Positions 34,413-54,119 are shown, counted from the first letter of the stretch. The stretch is 64,000 bases of DNA from Podarcis liolepis (GCA_965112155.1 OZ218102.1), one strand, 5' to 3'. Numbers and translations are program-made. The notes: a model not told the origin generated them from the sequence alone.

Positions 34413-34548
34413 CAGGCATAGGCAAACTTGGCCCTCCAGATGTTTTGGGACTACAATTCCCATCATCCCTGACCACTGGCCCTGTTAGCTAGGGATCATG
34501 GGAGCTGTAGTCCCAAAGCATCTGGAGGGCCGAGTTTGCCAATGCCTG
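34413..34548. mobile_element. Palindromic hAT MITE nested in an older related MITE (about 34367-34639)
   Basis: caggcataggcaaact...agtttgccaatgcctg; TSD gactataa/gactagaa; other family remnants at 1-77, 57825-57955, 60382-60503. Confidence 0.85.
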
Positions 34549-36080: not shown

Positions 36081-37867
36081 GTATGTATTCCATCATGTCA
36101 TTGTAGCATTATCTCCGTGGTCAGCACTGTGAATATGTAGTTGGCAGAATGGTTATTTTAGTTACTGACTTGATCACATTGCTTAGCAAAATTAATACCC
36201 CTCTCTCCTTTTGCACCACACTGTGATTTCATGCACACCATTATGTACCTATAAGCTGTTGATATATGTATATAATACTTATAGCCATGTTGCACATAAG
36301 GCTCATTGGAAAGTTTTGAGTACCCATGTAATGCTGCTGTCTCACACAACACATTAGGATTAGAAACTAGATTTATCTTGACTCAGTGTCATTTCAAGGT
36401 TGCCCTTCCAGTGCAGATGTAGAAATATATATTTCCCATTCGCTACCTAGCTTTTGGGCAGGGGAAAGAAGCATATATCTAGTTTTCCCCACCAGAAACA
36501 GAAAGGTTGCTCTGTTTGGGTTTTTTCCAGATGGACTAGATGCCAGGGCTCAGAATGAGGAAGAACATAGGCTTAGTTCTCTCAAGAGGCTGAGCATTAT
36601 TGAGGCTTCATGGGATTACAATACACAAAGGAGACTGAGTCATGCTTCCTGAACCTATGTTCCTCTCTCATGTCCTCACCACTCAATCTGCACACCTCTG
36701 ACCTTATAAAGATAACTTCTGAAGCAGGAAGCCTACCATAAGGAGATTGGCTCCATATGTGATTTAGAATCCTGGACAATATAAACCATGAGACAATGAG
36801 GACACAACAGAAAGGGAGAGACAGAAACTGCAACAGCACTCTCTCCTTTTTCATAGCTATAATCTCATGGGAGAGGACACTCAAACAGGACTCTGAAGGC
36901 AAACTGAACCTGTATCACTGGTAGAAGCTCTCATGACAGAAAGCTCTTCCATATAAAGCATTCTCTGTGACTAGAAAACCAGAAGTCAGGGAGAAAAACT
37001 TAGCCTGGCCAGTGGGAAAGCCATTTTTTCTCCTCAATAATGCCCTAAATGAAGTACAATAAACACATTTCTGTCTGCAGTTTTGATCAACGTATACATT
37101 TTCTCCTAATATAATGCAGTTTGTATGCTATTTTCACTAATATATACTCATTTATTCACACCTTTCTTCGAATATTTGCATTTTTGTAAACATTGGTTGG
37201 TGAACTGCATTGCGAAGGACAGAATGAATTTTGTTCTCGATTTGCATACCATTTTGGAAAGTGTAAAATTGGCTTCAAATACGAACTGAATTGAATTTCT
37301 CTCCTCTCCATCCCACGAAGATTCCTATTCACAGACTTTGTCTGGGATCTTCAGCAGTTGTATGAATGACGCAGTCAGCAAGCTAAGGACATTTTCTGCA
37401 ATGAGTGTGCATGTGTTGGTTCATTCATTTGTGAAGCCTGCTATTTTTCATCTCTATTCCCAAACCTATTTCATCTGTTGCCTTGTATTTGTGGAAAGTG
37501 GGAGATCATTATTCTTTCTCCAAACCCTCTCTGGTGCCTGCTGCTGCTTTGCATATATTTTATTGTACCTCTTCTCCCCAAAGGAGAGTCAGGTCACAGT
37601 GCTCCATGATGGAATGAGGCAATCTGTCAGTCATATGTCCATGAAGCAAATACCTATGGGCTGCCTTATGAATTGTGATTCGTTAGAGGAATCTTATTCT
37701 CCTGAGTCCCAAATCTTGTGTGGATAAATTATAGCACAAGTAAGATAGAAAAGCATGTGGCTGTTAAGAAGAGCTATAGTGAATAGGCTCATCATAGGTG
37801 GTGTGAGTTAGAAATAGCCACAGAAAAAGAGAGGAGAAAATTAATTTATAGACTAATATTATATTAA

Positions 37868-38222
37868 AAGGTAAAGGTACCCCTGCCCATACGGGCCAGT
37901 CGTGTCCAACTCTAGGGTTGCGTGCTCATCTCGCTCTATAGGCCGTGAGCTGGCGCCGTCCGAAGACACTTCCGGGTCATGTGGCCAGCGTGACGAAGCT
38001 GCAGCACAAGGAAACGCAGCACAAGGAAACGCCGTTTACCTTCCCGCTATAAAGCGGTACCTATTTATCTACTTGCACTTAAGAGTGCTTTCGAACTGCT
38101 AGGTGGGCAGGAGCTGGGACCGAACAACGGGAGCTCACCCCGCCGCGGGGATTCGAACCGCCGACCATACGATCAGCAAGTCCTAGGCACTGAGGTTTTA
38201 CCCACAGCGCCACCCGCGTCCC
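37868..38222 (-). mobile_element. Full-length Sauria SINE, different subfamily, CpG-rich (young)
   Basis: Same architecture; B-box ggttcgaatcc on the - strand; TSD taatattatattaa at 37854-37867 and 38225-38238. Confidence 0.92.
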
Positions 38223-38406
38223 TTTAATATTATATTAACAGGTAGCAAATATACAGCCTGACAGTGGTAAAGGTTTGAACATACAGAACAAAACATGAGA
38301 TTTATTCTGTAGTTTCAAACCTCTTGATTGGTTCCCCCTTTCACATGCAGATACACATACACACTCAAAAAAGAAGGGCTGGATTCAGTCATCAGTTGCA
38401 TTCACA

Positions 38407-38624
38407 TGGCGAGCCAGCGCAGCACACGGAACGCCGTTTACCTTCCCGCTGGTAAGCGGTCCCTATTTATCTACTTGCACCCGGAGGTGCTTTCGAACTG
38501 CTAGGTTGGCAGGCGCTGGGACCAAACGATGGGAGCGCACCCCGCCGCGGGGATTCGAACTGCCGACCATGCGATCGGCAAGTCCTAGGCGCTGAAGTTT
38601 TACCCACAGCGCCACCCGTGTCCC
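38407..38624 (-). mobile_element. Sauria SINE, 3'-truncated
   Basis: Aligns to the head and body of the neighbouring copy; tail portion absent. Confidence 0.88.
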
Positions 38625-39374
38625 TGCAGGAATAATATCCCTGTGCAAATTTGTAGTATTTTAGTCTCTAGTCATTCTTTTATACTGCTATGTCCTCTTT
38701 TTATGTCCTAAAAGTCATAGTTAATCATGCACTCAACAAGATATTTTATTAGAATCGCTCTTTGGTTTCAATTTATTCAATGGAATGAAGACAATTTCTG
38801 AAATACGGGGTTTCAATTATCCTGTGAAGCTTGCCTAGAGATCTGCTAGTTTACAGATCTCACGGCCTTTCTAGTAAGCTATGTAACAAACAGCCTCAAA
38901 ATGGGTGTTTTGTTTTGTTTTACGATAGTAGAATATATTTCTTAGGCTTAAGCCCAGGAGCCAGGCTGGTACTCTTCCCTGGCTCAAGGCATTTTCCTTG
39001 ACACATACACAAAGCCCACTCACATCATGCTTCTGTAGATGGGTCAGTCAGCTGATAGTCCTTTAGATCGGCTACCTACATGGCTGCAGAACAGTCTCCT
39101 GATTAATTCTTCCTCTCATAATATGGAGCAAGGAAAAGACCCTTAGTTTTTGTTTCATTTTTTTGTAGTTTCTGGTGTAATGTTTCTGGCATGTTAGTTT
39201 GATAACTACTCTGCAAGGATGATCCACAAGATCACAACCACCACACAATTTCTGGTGCTCCAGAAAGCTTCACCAGTGCAGCTGCTCCTGTCACAATCTA
39301 TACCTTTGTCGCACACATTACGCAGTTGTTCTTTTAAGCTTCATATGCACAAATGGCATAAATCACTGGTGATA

Positions 39375-42811: not shown

Positions 42812-43030
42812 ATTTCTGGATGGCAAACTCCTGGATATCAATAAAGAATTCCAGCCATACCTTGGGCAAGGAGGACGTATTTTGGAGATCCGCACTCCAG
42901 ATGTGGTGGCCAATGTCAAGAAGCAGGCCCAAGCCGTAGGCTACACAGAAGGGGCCTTGCTGGCTCTGGCTGTCATCATCATCCTTTGCTGCATGCCTGC
43001 TATTTTAATAGTTATGGTCAGCTACAAACA
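42812..43030 (+). CDS. PCDH15: PCDH15 transmembrane exon
   Basis: ttttaatcttcaAG|...|GTaagt; 219 nt phase 2 to 2; [72 protein letters not shown](Q), with hydrophobic TM helix. Confidence 0.97.
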
Positions 43031-43761
43031 GTAAGTATGCCAGCACTCTGTATACATCAAAGATGAAAGACTGGGCTGTGCTTGGTGGCAGGTTTCATAC
43101 TTTTGGTCACATTTCCAGCATACACATTTGAGGAGCCCTTCCTATTTAGGCTCCAGGTTCCACTGTCTCTCTTCCTCACCAAGAGCATTTACAGAAAAAC
43201 TCAAGGCTCTACCCTCCTTGAAAACAGAGGCTCACTATTTGGGGGCAAGGCCCAGGACTAAAAGGTAGAAGATACACGTCGCAAATAAGGTTCCAGGTTT
43301 GTTCCCAAGACTTTAGAAGAACTAACAATTCAGCCAAATGAGCTATGGGTTTCTATTCAGCATACATCAGCTGCCTTGTAGGTACCAAACCTTCTCCTTT
43401 TCTTCTCACACAACCTGATCACCCTTTCATCATGTTCTGAAAAAGGCCTCTCCCTTTCTGGTATGCTTCAAGGGATCATTAGTGCAGCAATCCAGTTTTT
43501 TTCCAGGGGCTGCAACATAGATTTTTTGCACCCCCTCCATCTTTCAGATTACTTCCATCCTGTGAGTTCTAAACTACTCTGTGTGATCCCTCCGAGGGAA
43601 GTGCTGGAGGTCAAAATGGGCCATTTCAGTGGTGGTTCCCTGCTTGTAGAATGCTCCTATGCCCTTTTAAAATGTGTGGGTTTTTTTGGGGGGGGGAGAG
43701 GTTATTGGGTTGTTTTTATTTTGATTATATATTTTGTGGTTTTATATTTTGATTTTGTTCT

Positions 43762-43830
43762 GTGAACTGCCCCGAGACCTCCAGGTATAGAGTGCTGTAT
43801 GAATTCAATAAATAATAATAACAATAATAA
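43762..43830 (+). mobile_element. L2-like LINE 3' end
   Basis: gtgaactgccccgagacc...gtatagagtgctgtatgaattcaataaataataa; similar ends at 26323-26383 and 20980-21046 (the latter with an (ATC)n tail). Confidence 0.6.
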
Positions 43831-44129
43831 TTTTAGACACCAGGCAAAAAATGTTTCCTTTTACCCAGGCTTTTGGCCCCTAATTTGGAATGTTTTAGGT
43901 GTTTGTTGTTGTTAGTATTGTGGCTACTGTTATTTATTAAATCTATGTACCACCCTTCAACAGAGGACCATAGGAAGGTTTACAATATGAAAACACAAGG
44001 ATACATACCATAGTAACAACCAAAAGCAATAACCCTCCCCCACCACTAGCACATTTAAAAGGCCATAGATAATTTAAATTTAAAAAATCCTTCCAGTAGC
44101 ACCTTAAAGACCAACTAAGTTAGTTCTTG

Positions 44130-44167
44130 GGATGAGCTTTCGTGTGCAAGCACACTTCTTCAGATAC
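44130..44167 (-). ncRNA. Second hammerhead motif copy (stem I mismatch)
   Basis: Reverse complement reads GUAUCUGAAGAAGUGUGCUUGCACACGAAAGCUCAUCC; core intact, AUAC changed to AUCC breaks one stem I pair. Confidence 0.7.
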
Positions 44168-44554
44168 ACTGAAACAGAAGTTGCCAGATCCTTCTATATA
44201 GTGAGAAGGTGGGGAGGGGTATTACTCAGAAGGGTGGTGGGAATGGGAGATTGGCAGATAGCTGAGATGAGCCTGTTGGCGACTCTTAACGACTGTAATA
44301 GGTCTTACAGGAAAAGGCAAGGGGTGAGAAGGTGAGAAATGGCTTAGTCATGTATAATGAGATAAGAATCCAGTGTCTTTGTTCAGACCAGGTCTCACCC
44401 CTTGCCTTTTCCTGTAAGACCTATTACAGTCGTTAAGAGTCGTCAATAGGCTCATCTCAGCTATCTGCCAATCTCCCATTCCCACCACCCTTCTGAGTAA
44501 TACCCCTCCCCACCTTCTCACTATATAGAAGGATCTGGCAACTTCTGTTTCAGT

Positions 44555-44592
44555 GTATCTGAAGAAGTGTGCATGCACACGAAAGCTCATAC
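44555..44592 (+). ncRNA. Minimal type I hammerhead ribozyme motif (PLE-type)
   Basis: GUAU-CUGAAGA-A-GUGUG-CAUG-CACAC-GAAA-GC-UC-AUAC: catalytic boxes, 5-bp stem II, 4-bp stem I, palindromic AGCU in place of stem III. Confidence 0.8.
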
Positions 44593-47188
44593 CAAGAACT
44601 AACTTAGTTGGTCTTTAAGGTGCTACTGGAAGGAATTTTTTTATTTTGACTATGGCAGACCAACATGGCTACCTATCTGTAAATAGATAATTTAATTAGC
44701 CAAAGGCCTGGGGGGAAGGATGTTAGGGATCCAGACATTCTTCCCTGGAAAAAGCATTCCACAACCAGGGAGCCACCATGGAAAAGGCCCATTTTTGTAT
44801 TGCCACCCTCCAGATCTCTTTTAATGGAGTAGGATGTGTTCAACCTGCTTTTTGCATGTGTGGATTCTTAAGTTTTTGATTTATTTTGGCTTTTATACCT
44901 GGCTTTAACGTTTGTATTTTGAACTATTTTGTTGCATTACAAAGTTTGTCAGTTGCTTCATGCCTCTTTTGTGAAAGAGCAACTAATAAGATTTAGTAAG
45001 ATTAATAAGGATAAAAATAAGAATACCTTGATGGTTTTTAAAGCCATATTCAATAGTACTCCTGTGTACCTGTCACCTGTGATCTGTACTAAAATAATAA
45101 GGAAATATGTGTATTTTCCTCTTCTCCTAAGGTTTTGCTATGCTTTAATCACCAAATATCAAAGCTAGCAAAATAACTATTCAAGTTAATGCAAGAATTA
45201 AAGCCAAATGAACATAACCGTCATCATTGGAGCACATAAAATGGAAACATTAAGAATTGCTTTATATTAAAATTGTGTGTGTGTGTCATAGTTACATTTT
45301 TCAATACTTTCCAGGCCACTGATCAGCTTAATATTCAATGAATTAATTTTTGCAGATTGTAAAAAGCACAGTAAAGTTAAATGAATTTTACACTACTTGT
45401 TTTCCAGGGTGAAATAACAGTGTTGCAGCACTGCTCAGTACCTCCTTGTATAGTTTGCAAATAACCCCAAAAAGTATTGCTGCTCATTTCTATTAGGTGG
45501 CACCTCTGAAATTTTGGTATCCTGTACTGAAGAATAAATCAATGGTGAACCACAAATTATGAATTAATGAAAGTAGAGTGGCACATTTTAAATGGCCCTC
45601 AAAATGGAGAACAGCCTTGCTATTATTTTTAATTTCCTTTATATTATATCTATAATTTGAATTCAGAAAGTAATTGTAAGACTTATTTTTTCGTCTCCTA
45701 ACATTTGAAAGCAACAACTGTAGTTGGAATTGCTGTTTTAATCACTGGGGTTTTTTGTTTTTAAAAAAAACAACAAAAAAATACCAAACAATCAAAACAT
45801 TCCAAATACCACATTGAGAGAGACAAAATACATAAGTGACCCACACGTCCCCATTACACACTGGAAATAATATATCTATAAATGCCAAACATATAGGATT
45901 GATTACAGCAACAGATTTGTGAAGTTAACCACAGCCATCTTTAAATATTAGAGATGATCAGTGACATGATGGCTAAATGAAGAAAATCCAGAATATCAAT
46001 ATAAAGTTCAGAATAACATAACTCTACAAAACAAAAAGTGAATGTGTTTTAGGTTCTTCTTGTGAGGAATTAATGATAGAAATTAAGATAGACCAGCTAT
46101 AAAATGTATCACTGATAATGTCGACTCTAACTACTCTGCAGTGTTGTGCTAGTTTGTTAACAGGCACTGTCTTCCAAACCTATCATGCCAGTTTTTCATA
46201 GTTAACAAGTGACCACTTCTCCACAAGACTGCAATCTCCATCTGGGCTGCTTTCAGGAAATTTATTATTAACGACTTAAACAAAACATTGGCTTTTGTAG
46301 ACTGTCTTTAGCCAGTGAAATTCTTCGTGCAAATCACATTATTACAATGATTTTTTTTTAAAAAACAAAACCTTAAGTAATAAATTGACAACTGCAAAGC
46401 ATGACCCATTCCCTGCTGGAAATTCCATAGGGCAACTTGAAGACCTTTGCATGCCTTCTTAGCCCTAAGCCCAGTGCACCAGTAAACTATTTGCTTGCAC
46501 ACCACAATAAATCGAACTATGGCTTCGTAGGACTACATGAACATAGAGGCTCCCAGAGAGGAGCTTGCAGCCACTTTGCTCTTCCACAATCCTTAGCTGA
46601 GTGTGTCATGGCAGTAAAGCCAAGGTTTTACTTAGTGTGTCATCTAAATCTACAGTTGGGGTTAAGCTCTTTCTTCCTTAACCACGAACAGTGGCCAATT
46701 TACATGTGATTGTTTAAAAGGAAAAAAGCTTGCTGTTTTATTTTAAAGAGAGGGCATTTATATGACACACCAGCTGCTGTCTCAGAAGATACCGTACTTT
46801 AACTCCTATATGAGAATGGTGGTTCTTCTCTTAAGATGGTGTTTTGTCATATGTGGTTTTCCTGGGTATAGTAAAATGCTTAATTTAATTTGCATTGCCT
46901 GATCAGTGATGCCTGTTTAGTTTATTAATTGACTCCTTAAGACTGTAGTACTATACACATTTACTTGGGAGTAAATCCCATTGAAATCAACAGGGTCTAC
47001 TTCTGAGCAGACCTTTATATGATTGCACTGTTAACTGACTAACCCATTAATGTTTTAGCCCTAATGTGATTTGTACAGTTAAATTTAATGCCTTATGAAA
47101 TTTATTAGATTTCACAATGTGAATTATTTTTACTAAGTGAAACTCACAACTTTTGTTCTCTGTTTTATCACTCTGCATAACAAAACAG

Positions 47189-47197
47189 ATTTAAAGA
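47189..47197 (+). CDS. PCDH15: PCDH15 9-nt microexon (Q-F-K-E)
   Basis: ctctgcataacaaaacAG|ATTTAAAGA|GTAAGT; frame-preserving phase 2 to 2; gives YKQFKERQAEC, matching recalled mammalian YRQFKVRQAEC. Confidence 0.9.
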
Positions 47198-48178: not shown

Positions 48179-48289
48179 GAGACAAGCAGAATGTGCAAAG
48201 ACGGCTCGAATCCAGATGGCCTTACCAGCTGGCAAACCAGCAAGCACTCCTGCCCATAATCTCTATGAAGAACTCGGCGACAGCACCAT
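48179..48289 (+). CDS. PCDH15: PCDH15 juxtamembrane cytoplasmic common-region exon
   Basis: caccaaAG|...|GTAAGT; 111 nt phase 2 to 2; [36 protein letters not shown](M/I). Confidence 0.95.
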
Positions 48290-51278: not shown

Positions 51279-52708
51279 GTAAGTAAACTCAAACCATTGC
51301 GGGTAATATTGTAGCAGATGGGGAAAGTAGTTGATTTTTGTTACTGAGAATTGCAATTATTTCCTAGTAATGTAGTAACTGGAAGACATTTATTTCTAAA
51401 TCATTCAATGTACTACGTTCCAAAGGGAAGTAGGGCTAAGGAACTGAAAGCACTGTCATTGCACTGCGTGTGAAGACATTTCTGGTGAGTAGATTCTATC
51501 CCCTTCAGCTTGTTGGCACCTCTAAAATTTAGAGGCTGCAACCTGAAAATGTGCATTTACTGGAAGGCTCATTAACGCCAATGGGACTGATCGCTATTGA
51601 GCAGCTTAAGCTTTGCAATCATCAAATCACCAAAGCGTAGCCTTTTCATTTCACCATGTCTGCAGTTAGGCTAAGCCAAAATGGATTTGAGTTATAGGGA
51701 GCATAGAACATAGCCTGCCAACCACAGCTCCTGAAAAGCGCCTTGTTAGTGAAGTGAGCAGAGCTTGCACAGGAGTATCGCTTAGTGGGTTGACTCATTT
51801 AAATACAATTTCCATTTGCTCTTGCAAGCAGACCACATGGCACAACTGCTATGGGGATGCCTCTGAGAAGTGACTCATCCCACACTAACCCCGTAATCTT
51901 ACAACTACTCACCATATCAACACAGCAATAGACTCCTGATCCCACTAGGAATATGAAGCATATGCACAGCATGTTACCATAAATCCATGATGTTTCAGAT
52001 AGAACAGGGATTAACAGCTGTTTTGGTGACCATAAGGACTGTTCTAGCCCATTTGCAACACAAACATCCCAGTCCAGACCCTTATGTTTACAATAATTTA
52101 CAACTGAGTTCTTATTCATATAGGTGCCCCTATGCATATTGACTCGAGGGGCAGCTCTCAACATGAACCTGTCTCCTCCATTCAGATGAATGGTAAAGCC
52201 CTTTCTGTGGCTGAGTCCATGTGTACTTCAGGTCTCTGAAGCCAAAAGAAAGCACTAGACTGGGAACTTCCCTCACAATCTACTGTCCTGTCATTTTTAT
52301 TTCTTTGATCCCCACTTACTATAAGCAAGAACCTAGACACCATGTGCACTCCTTGAAATAGATCTCATACACAATGCCTCTTTGTCATGGCTTTTGAGCA
52401 TTCAGGAGAAAATTCAGATTTATAAAAAAGCATTAGCTTTTGAAAGGCATTTGTTTAAATTAACAGTTTACCTTATTTGCCTTCCCTTGGTAAGAGAAGT
52501 GAACCACTTCCCTTAGTAAATAAATAAATGTCTTGTGTTTGTAGCTTAATTACATATAGATTAATTACATGTAGCTCTAGATTCTTAGATATCCTTAGAA
52601 AGCTTTAGACGTCACTGTTTTTTGTTCACAGCATTCAGATTATATTTTCTCATTCAAATCAATGTCCATGCATGCTTCCTTACCTGTGATTATTTTCTTT
52701 CTTTCAAG

Positions 52709-54119
52709 TCTTTTTCTTCTCTATCAATTTCAACAAAGCAGGGGAAAAAAGTCAGTCTTCGAAGAAGGGGACCGTCAGAGGGCTATAAGCAGCTTTGCCT
52801 CTCGTGCTATTGAGGCCCACAAGCAATCTAATATCAATGGAACATTGAACAATAACTTCCCCAAATCTGCAAGTAATGTGACGCTTTTGTCTGATGAGAA
52901 CCCATTGACAACTCAGAACCCTCTGTACATGGAGGGTGCGACCCAGGGTTCTGCTTATTCTGGGGTCCTGCCAGAGAGAAAAGATTTTCTGTCCCCCTTT
53001 TCTCCCAGAAAGTTAGCCTTGAAAAATTCTCTGTTGGGATGGCCTTCGGGAAGCATTCATCGGGCGTGGACTCTACCAACTCGTCTTCCCAGAAGACACC
53101 TTTCTGATGCTTTGAGTAGGGCAGTCATTATGGACCCAGTTCAGTGGGAGCAGGAGAGAATCAGGGCAGAGAAGGAAAGGGCAGGGATTCAGCACCGCAG
53201 AGCCGACGTTGGCAGTCCAGTCTTCAAAAAGATCATTGGCACAAAGATATCAGTCAAAGAGAAAGCAAGGCAGTTTGAACAGCAAGCCCTGCAGGAAATG
53301 AAACAAGTGAGATCCCGAGATATGAAAAGTTTGCGTTCACCGACACATAGCAGCTGCACTCAGGATGGAGAGAGCTCACTTGAGTTGTCCACCGAAAGCC
53401 TCCTTCCATCTCCTGTCCATCTCTCACCTTCTTTTTCCTCCCTCAGTCCTCACTCTGAGGTTATTGAACTCGACACGTCTACTATACCTTCTGTGATCAT
53501 AACTCACCATGATGCTCCTGAACGTTTGTCCCCTCCACCAATTCACAAGCCCATTCCTCCTTCCTTTAGGATCAAAATTCCAGCTCGCCAAAATCTTTTA
53601 CCCTGTCAACCTACAGTGGAAGCAATGGAAATCATTCCTGATCCACCCAAAACCCCTCCACCGCCTCCACCACCTCCGTCTCCCCTCCCCCCACCACCAA
53701 CTCCTCCCCCGTTGCCACTTCCATTTCCTTCCCCTCCTCCCAGCCTTTCCTTATCGTCTTCTTCTTCTACTCTAAGCACTCAGCTCCTCTCCCCTGTAAA
53801 ACACACCAAGTCACCCTCCAAACAAGAAGTGGTCTGCATCCCTGATTTACCTGACCCTCCTCGCCGGGAGCTGAAGGGGATTCTTAAAAACATCCAGAAC
53901 TTAGCAGATATTGAAAAATCTGTGGCCAATATGTATAGTCAAATAGACAAAAACCACATCTTACCTAAGCACATCGCCAAGCTGAGGCCAGTTGCAACGC
54001 CAGAACCACCAAGTACACAAACGATGATTGAGACTGAGCACAGCCAGCAGAATGGAAACTTGAGCTGCATAGTGGAGGAACTTGAAAAAAGATTCCCATC
54101 GCAGTCCACTGCATTATGA
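52709..54119 (+). CDS. PCDH15: PCDH15 terminal exon, cytoplasmic domain CD1
   Basis: Within ORF 52662-54119; acceptor ttttctttctttcaAG| in phase 2; LFLLYQFQQSRG..., NPLY, polyproline tract, KGILK, EKSVANMYSQIDKN, ends QSTAL* (class I PDZ ligand; human CD1 recalled as ending QSTSL). Confidence 0.95.

Follow-up and report, generated by a model that had tools for sequence, protein, structure and literature searches.

Within an intron of PCDH15, a hearing and vision gene with a role in mechanotransduction, lie two long inverted arms that can pair almost without fault, which raises the question of what this structure is, how it became palindromic, and whether it bears on the gene that carries it. 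A sequence-only reading of the stretch of DNA analysed here (the window, 64 kb) had described it as a young Penelope-like insertion in an older L2-like repeat, lying between the transmembrane exon and a microexon. Our analysis makes it very probable that the structure is a dead, truncated Penelope-like insert with its two arms head to head, and that its hairpin is likely edited by ADAR and likely without effect on splicing.

Position of the insertion in PCDH15

The exons in the window match PCDH15 chains in the PDB and place the gene on the + strand. The exon carrying the transmembrane (TM) helix corresponds to residues 195-266 of PDB 6c14_A (E 4e-33), the exon starting at 48179 maps from chain residue 271 onward, and the 4 residues absent between the two fit the 9-nt exon (Table 1). 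These matches confirm the placement of the insert between the TM exon and the 9-nt microexon that had been proposed from the sequence: both arms fall inside the intron 43031-47188, where the insert lies 1,048 nt past the 5' splice site, with another 2,507 nt to the microexon downstream.

About 15 nt before the 3' splice site of the microexon there is a TGC, with a pyrimidine run further upstream (47170-47188), which we take to be the signature of SRRM4-type neural microexons; a term search of the PCDH15 and microexon papers checked returned nothing on the 9-nt exon. Further along the gene, a 506-codon proline-rich frame (52599-54119, +) that ends in STAL is likely the terminal cytoplasmic-domain exon of PCDH15.

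Anatomy of the insertion

The insert is 605 nt long (44078-44682) and is flanked on both sides by a perfect 13-nt direct repeat in which 12 of the 13 bases are A or T. Its 242-nt arms (44088-44329 and 44393-44634) are separated by a loop of 63 nt (44330-44392), and pairing them leaves 4 non-Watson-Crick positions: 44131/44591 (G-A), 44149/44573 (A-A), 44275/44447 (G-U) and 44279/44443 (G-U). All the figures that the sequence-only reading had given for the arms, their mismatches (two of them G-U) and the loop were reproduced. The stem runs for 180 bp without interruption when G-U pairs are counted, and the arms contain 131 adenosines. Folding the region as RNA, as had been suggested, gave a very stable structure (-515.5 kcal/mol for 44060-44700, z -64.6 against 20 shuffles).

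Alignment to the unit of a full-length natural copy, L052, places the - strand of about 44076-44396 at element positions 2649-2967 (93%) and the + strand from 44393 to about 44682 at positions 2715-2998 (96%). Both arms thus map to the 3' end of an element encoding RT and GIY-YIG, which upholds the Penelope-like identity, and the match of its 3' part on two strands supports the description of the insert as an inverted partial pLTR. Neither arm is contained within the other: the left arm extends, slightly degenerate, to about 44078; the 63-nt "loop" is element sequence (the ORF end) belonging to the left arm only; and the tail (the last ~35 nt, about 44648-44682) is present on the right arm only. 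The arms meet in a 4-nt microhomology, and the content of the insert comes to the pLTR plus the last ~15 ORF codons.

A scan of the 64-kb window found no second long near-perfect inverted repeat and no further copy of the insert's Penelope-like family. Older imperfect palindromes occur at 34413-34548 (83%) and 8323-8412 (76%), and another repeat is present in three direct copies that are 79-89% alike (12847-13200, 37867-38223 and 38407-38627).

Table 1. Coordinates of the insert, its parts and the neighbouring features in the window.
Feature	Position	Strand	Basis
PCDH15 exon with transmembrane helix, upstream of insert	42812-43030	+	PDB 6c14_A match
Second old LINE 3' fragment, (AAT)n-type tail, opposite to host LINE	43613-43830	+	inverted repeat, paralogs
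Host LINE, 3' UTR part left of insert, ~80% to paralogs	43925-44077	-	paralog alignment
Left TSD copy, 13 bp	44065-44077	+	direct repeat
Inverted tail-less arm, last ORF codons to ~35-45 nt short of the tailed end	44078-44396	-	alignment to L052
Left-arm hammerhead, antisense to PCDH15; one stem I mismatch, one loop II change	44130-44167	-	by eye
Junction microhomology, 4 nt	44393-44396		junction reading
Direct tailed arm: 3' pLTR part and tail	44393-44682	+	alignment to L052
Intact minimal hammerhead, sense to PCDH15; predicted trapped in stem	44555-44592	+	by eye, fold
Right TSD copy, 13 bp	44683-44695	+	direct repeat
Host LINE, ORF2 end right of insert	44696-44833	-	paralog alignment
PCDH15 9-nt microexon, 2,507 nt downstream of insert	47189-47197	+	PDB chain gap

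The host repeat

Both flanks of the insert belong to the 3' end of an older and very abundant LINE, for which a nucleotide search of the genome with the flanks returned 965 and 999 candidates at 75-90% identity and a protein search 76,088 candidates. Of 22 paralogous LINE loci, 6 can be aligned on either side of the insert, the two alignments overlapping at the 13-mer, and because these loci read across a single copy of it, the perfect 13-bp TSD claimed from the sequence is real. A related copy, L153, contains RVT_1 (E 4e-37) and is 74% identical to the flank across 89 nt. The "older L2-like repeat" of the sequence-only reading therefore stands as an older LINE; its L2 label is a tentative one given from C-terminal motifs, and a Pfam search with the LINE's C-terminal peptide gave no match. 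The opposed old LINE fragments are predicted to form a weak outer stem, pairing 43604-43663 with 44753-44813 and 43664-43817 with 43928-44061.

The parent family

With the loop and right arm as query, the insert's own genome returned 2,017 candidates, of which the 40 scored are 92-100% identical; against closer family copies the insert reaches up to 99%. Longer copies run into an ORF, and a protein search with this ORF gave 6,450 candidates, of which the 133 scored are all 97-100% identical and without stops. A 926-codon frame is found in five of these 133 copies, with RVT_1 (E 1.4e-11) and GIY-YIG (E 2.1e-5) domains; a PDB search with the full ORF at E 0.01 gave 0 matches. The frame has a DKG motif at 333, a CX4CxxC linker at 786-794 before GIY-YIG, and a CCHH motif made of CxxC 830-833, ahead of YIG 838, with histidines 853 and 869. 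The family also has partial tandems forming pLTRs, an inverted truncated copy and a one-sided tail of 30-40 bp.

Passages of PMC8557442 define endonuclease-positive Penelope-like elements (PLEs) by features that include DKG and a CCHH with two cysteines between GIY and YIG, and give a CX2-5CxxC zinc-finger-like linker before GIY-YIG as a Neptune/Nematis trait that Penelope/Poseidon is without. By its motifs, then, the parent family is an endonuclease-positive PLE of Neptune/Nematis type; of these two clades Neptune is the likely one, chosen from the vertebrate host, and the clade call follows one motif and not a tree. A Poseidon label, which we also considered, is ruled out by the linker zinc finger. 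The family is still active and has intact full-length frames; the insert is a dead, 5'-truncated copy of this abundant family.

Two further copies were noted. In L057, which represents a second young subfamily, the pLTR region is ~9 bases longer, the frame runs to 921 codons, and the arms are identical across 1.7 kb. L011 is a family copy lying within a LINE that bears endonuclease and RT remnants and, by its motifs, is presumably RTE-like.

Abundance and shape of family copies

The 38-nt hammerhead core of the family has 9,879 exact matches genome-wide, against 0 for a control. We took the first 30 pattern matches as a positional sample; these amount to 29 insertions, since two loci are one insertion, and they come from a single chromosome end, where copies are denser than average. 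Head-to-head, two-ended copies make up 12 of the 29 (41%, 95% interval 24-61%), and a TSD of 9-15 bp (median 12) was detected in 19. Among the first 100 pattern matches, neighbours within 1 kb of each other were head to head in 14 cases and tail to tail in 1. Extrapolated roughly to the genome, these numbers give ~8,500 insertions with an exact core, ~3,500 of them two-armed (~2 per Mb), and ~1,200 two-armed copies with arms longer than 150 bp.

Passages of PMC8557442 and PMC3846280 describe inverted, 5'-truncated PLE copies with a 30-40-bp tail that is often at one end only; the insert is an ordinary member of this known kind, and its anatomy is already published. What the sequence-only reading had not contained is that this genome holds such hairpins in the thousands, and that each arm has a hammerhead motif.

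In 5 of the 14 head-to-head pairs the cores are 41-66 nt apart, making minimal palindromic stubs (G000:C1:3041638-4404022). The first 5.8 Mb (G000:C1:1-5830000) hold 100 exact cores, or 17 per Mb against 6.3 genome-wide, and an enrichment of the core near the chromosome end is possible. Copies with a short inversion ending before the 3' end, which in this resemble L1 twin priming (L127, L132, L137, L005, L008 and L022), coexist with the two-ended type.

Age and presence in relatives

The four sites at which the arms differ reflect private changes of this copy, three on the left arm and one on the right; the family state at these sites is found in 114 of 114, 110 of 114, 165 of 165 and 164 of 164 matches, in a count made without de-duplication of loci. 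Two of the left-arm changes have the A-to-G look of an editing footprint, a reading that we rejected because they are T-to-C on the element's sense strand.

The arm divergence of the insert is 1.65% (95% interval 0.45-4.2%), or 7 differences in 254 with the degenerate end included. Over the 12 positional two-armed copies the mean is 25 in 1,511 (1.65%), and over six long-ORF copies, those of eight that gave an arm pair, it is 4 in 8,596 (0.05%). Since its divergence equals the sample mean and lies far above that of the long-ORF copies, the insert is a middle-aged copy of a still-moving family. The description of the insertion as young or recent is right relative to the host LINE, but within the family, where the youngest copies stand at 0.05%, the insert is of average age.

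Relatives were compared at the insert flanks in the public contigs of five of the 24 sequencing runs listed (X1, X2, X3, X4 and X7), and the search for an empty site that the sequence-only reading had advised found one. In X2 (organism B), which shows 13 differences over 618 nt, the alignment begins at 44683, and 77 additional letters do not fit the insert; read by eye from two contigs, its loose end matches 22 of 30 positions of the left flank and 8 of 30 of the element tail. On this alignment we read X2 as carrying an empty site. In X7 (organism F) and X4 (organism D) the sequence continues past 44077 for 10 and 14 letters, which do not fit the insert either; this is a hint that both are also empty, and it depends on how we read which end overhangs in - strand records. 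Organism F is probably without the insert. X1 (organism A, the closest, with 0 differences in 618 nt) and X3 (organism C) break exactly at the TSD, where filled and empty sites look the same. X1 is apparently heterozygous at 44034, 44 nt left of the insert, with a window-like and an X7-like allele, and its haplotypes could differ in the insertion.

Origin of the inversion

The distribution of tails among family copies bears on how the inversion arose. Single-ended copies in the positional sample are 8 tailed and 9 tail-less, whereas in 11 of the 12 two-armed copies one arm is tailed and the other is not (p 0.003 against the single-ended split). Among 41 loci picked by similarity, the same combination is found in 21 of the 21 copies whose inverted arm reaches the 3' end; in this set one tailed arm is forced by the query. 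The 5' reach of the arms is free: in 11 copies it is greater for the tail-less arm in 6, for the tailed arm in 3, and equal in 2, and in the PCDH15 intron it is the tail-less arm that extends further 5'. These tail statistics come from small samples, with copy ends taken from BLAST matches. For Poseidon of Anolis, passages of PMC11167929 report in-vitro use of two RT start sites delimiting the tail, an AT-rich target, and nicking and extension of both strands, with a dimer predicted; the start site is described there as not different between strands.

Taken together, the tail statistics, the free 5' reach and the Poseidon findings are most simply explained by two cDNAs, each with a nick and a start site of its own, that would have been linked through microhomology; we lean towards this model by analogy, as its in-vitro basis comes from another clade. 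The GIY-YIG endonuclease would nick AT-rich DNA at two points staggered ~13 nt apart; each nick would prime a short cDNA, one from each of two RT start sites ~35 nt apart; the two cDNA ends would be joined via the 4-nt microhomology; and repair would leave the 13-bp TSD.

The same element, equally neutral, might instead have been inverted by fold-back self-priming of one strand, with its tail made by endonuclease resolution. Self-priming on an antisense template has been proposed from junction palindromes (in passages of PMC3846280), and the tail has been ascribed to endonuclease resolution (likewise in PMC8557442); the 4-nt microhomology and a single-stranded loop are compatible with such a course, and subfamily states are common to both arms of an insertion. 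The mean arm difference over 23 insertions is 0.69% within against 1.69% between insertions, a separation that is clear only in young copies, and for 5 of the 23 insertions 12 or more of the 22 foreign arms are nearer than the insertion's own arm. A simple fold-back of one cDNA, however, predicts the tail on the arm that extends further 5', and that arm is tail-less here and in 6 of the 11 sampled copies, against 3 of the opposite kind; the tail was, moreover, later matched to two RT start sites (in passages of PMC11167929). We therefore regard fold-back as a possible but doubtful origin.

The two-cDNA model can be carried one step further. If one protein dimer were to prime both nicked strands on a single RNA, at different start sites, each two-armed insertion would receive exactly one tail and would from birth be a perfect hairpin that buries its hammerhead; the family would be a steady source of new intronic dsRNA, and the rank of Penelope as the most edited LINE-type repeat of lizards would find an explanation. 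We give this extension an even chance. The two-start model was not found stated in the literature searched; early subscription papers on Penelope, which were not searchable, may state it. A search for literature on twin priming and inversion in PLEs returned no title on PLE inversions, and a passage of PMC8557442 names the formation of the inverted structures as open.

Hammerhead motifs and predicted RNA behaviour

Comparison by eye with the hammerheads in PMC4209133 identifies a minimal motif on each arm. The sense motif has its stems and core present and folds when alone; an Rfam scan of 43500-45300 to E 10 returned 17 matches, none at gathering score and none of them a hammerhead. Forming the sense hammerhead takes +61.6 kcal/mol when the left arm is present and +2.3 kcal/mol when it is absent, and PLE hammerhead monomers are described as inactive without a partner or protein (in passages of PMC11167929 and PMC4209133). 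This motif could in principle cut the intron, but the fold model predicts that it is buried by the stem. The ATG in its loop II opens a 9-codon frame (window 44573-44602, +; L052:2741-2770) whose stop lies shortly ahead of the youngest subfamily's 926-codon frame and in phase with it; the latter may start at a downstream Met or by read-through.

During transcription of PCDH15 the left arm would be made first and the right arm would zip onto it, burying the sense hammerhead and giving a dsRNA of ~240 bp that would leave with the spliced-out intron. According to passages of PMC5625713, Penelope alone among LINE-type repeats is massively edited in the brain of lizards, at more than 40,000 sites, and short-loop palindromes are strong ADAR targets; on both grounds, editing of the present hairpin is likely by analogy, and would not be new for the lizard Penelope class. 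As for splicing, exon skipping by looping out requires inverted repeats on both sides of an exon (a passage of PMC13019027), and here both arms lie in one intron with no exon in the loop. As the loop is without an exon and the microexon is 2.5 kb away, an effect of the insert on splicing appears unlikely from the positions of these features.

Very short exons are often context-sensitive, which favours an effect on the microexon, and a functional hairpin could alter inclusion of the 9-nt exon, slow removal of the intron, or feed endo-siRNA directed against the family. The predicted stem is indeed very stable and continuous over its G-U pairs, the weak outer stem of the two old LINE fragments would widen the fold to about 43600-44860, and weak splice-site-like words are found inside the insert. 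Against this, the arms share one intron, 1.0 and 2.5 kb from its splice sites, and flank no exon; the microexon's own flanks are outside the insert; the window has no other family copy; and the insert is not conserved, being missing from at least one close relative. Intronic dsRNA is, in addition, retained in the nucleus, and editing unwinds it. Passages of PMC5625713 point in the same direction, and we consider a function of the hairpin improbable.

That the inversion is an assembly artefact is scarcely credible: inverted structures of PLEs do cause difficulties in assembly (a passage of PMC8557442), and no contig spanning the filled junction was seen among the public contigs of the five runs, but the four private differences and unequal extents of the arms speak against it, the arms stop at two family-typical ends inside a perfect TSD, and paralogs of the host LINE are continuous through the single TSD copy. 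Long inverted arms with a TSD resemble at first sight a MITE or a DNA transposon with long terminal inverted repeats, and Rfam names miRNA families on the hairpin, but these matches are far under their gathering scores (best 53 against 190 bits), and both this and a microRNA precursor are refuted, to the point of near-impossibility, by the match of arms and loop with an RT-encoding element at its 3' end and by arm lengths that vary freely between family copies.

The single locus matters little: it is one intronic hairpin among an estimated few thousand and gives no indication of a function. Its weight would grow if the 9-nt exon, part of a mechanotransduction gene, were shifted by the carrier allele, an unlikely case. 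Of more importance is the family, which is active and has intact full-length frames, and whose tail statistics, the main part worth keeping, offer a handle on how PLE inversions form.

Comparison with known systems

In L1 twin priming, a second nick primes a second cDNA, the junction shows microhomology and the TSD is kept. The model favoured here shares these three features with it, but the inverted part of L1 lies upstream and barely overlaps the direct part, whereas here both arms repeat the same 3' region, hence the hairpin.

The closest likeness is to the units of endonuclease-positive PLEs (Penelope/Poseidon, Neptune and Nematis), for which passages of PMC8557442 and PMC3846280 describe a 5'-truncated and an inverted copy head to head, a 30-40-bp tail at one end, a variable TSD, a hammerhead in the pLTR, and a parent ORF with RT plus GIY-YIG at the C terminus. 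There is no difference in kind; the insert holds the pLTR and the last ~15 codons only, and the family's median TSD of 12 is slightly above the 8-10 bp examples in PMC3846280. The Poseidon of Anolis carolinensis (PAc), as far as passages of PMC11167929 describe it, is likewise a lizard PLE with a hammerhead near the ORF start, an AT-rich target, and two 3' ends ~35 nt apart inside the ORF start, its ORF being said to begin in stem II of the hammerhead. In this comparison by description, the present family differs from it in the CX4CxxC linker.

The metazoan PLE minimal hammerheads in passages of PMC4209133 resemble the motifs found here in the extra base before stem II, the G-C first pair of stem II, the 4-bp stem I and the palindromic remnant of stem III; here, by contrast, stem II has 5 bp and a self-complementary loop, and the motif follows its own antisense copy in a host transcript. 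Finally, passages of PMC5625713 and PMC13019027 describe hyper-edited intronic inverted repeats (Alu pairs, frog Harbinger and lizard Penelope) that, like the present hairpin, put long, near-perfect, short-loop dsRNA into pre-mRNA. Unlike Alu pairs, both arms here come from one insertion, and because they enclose no exon, loop-out skipping of the Alu type is inapplicable.
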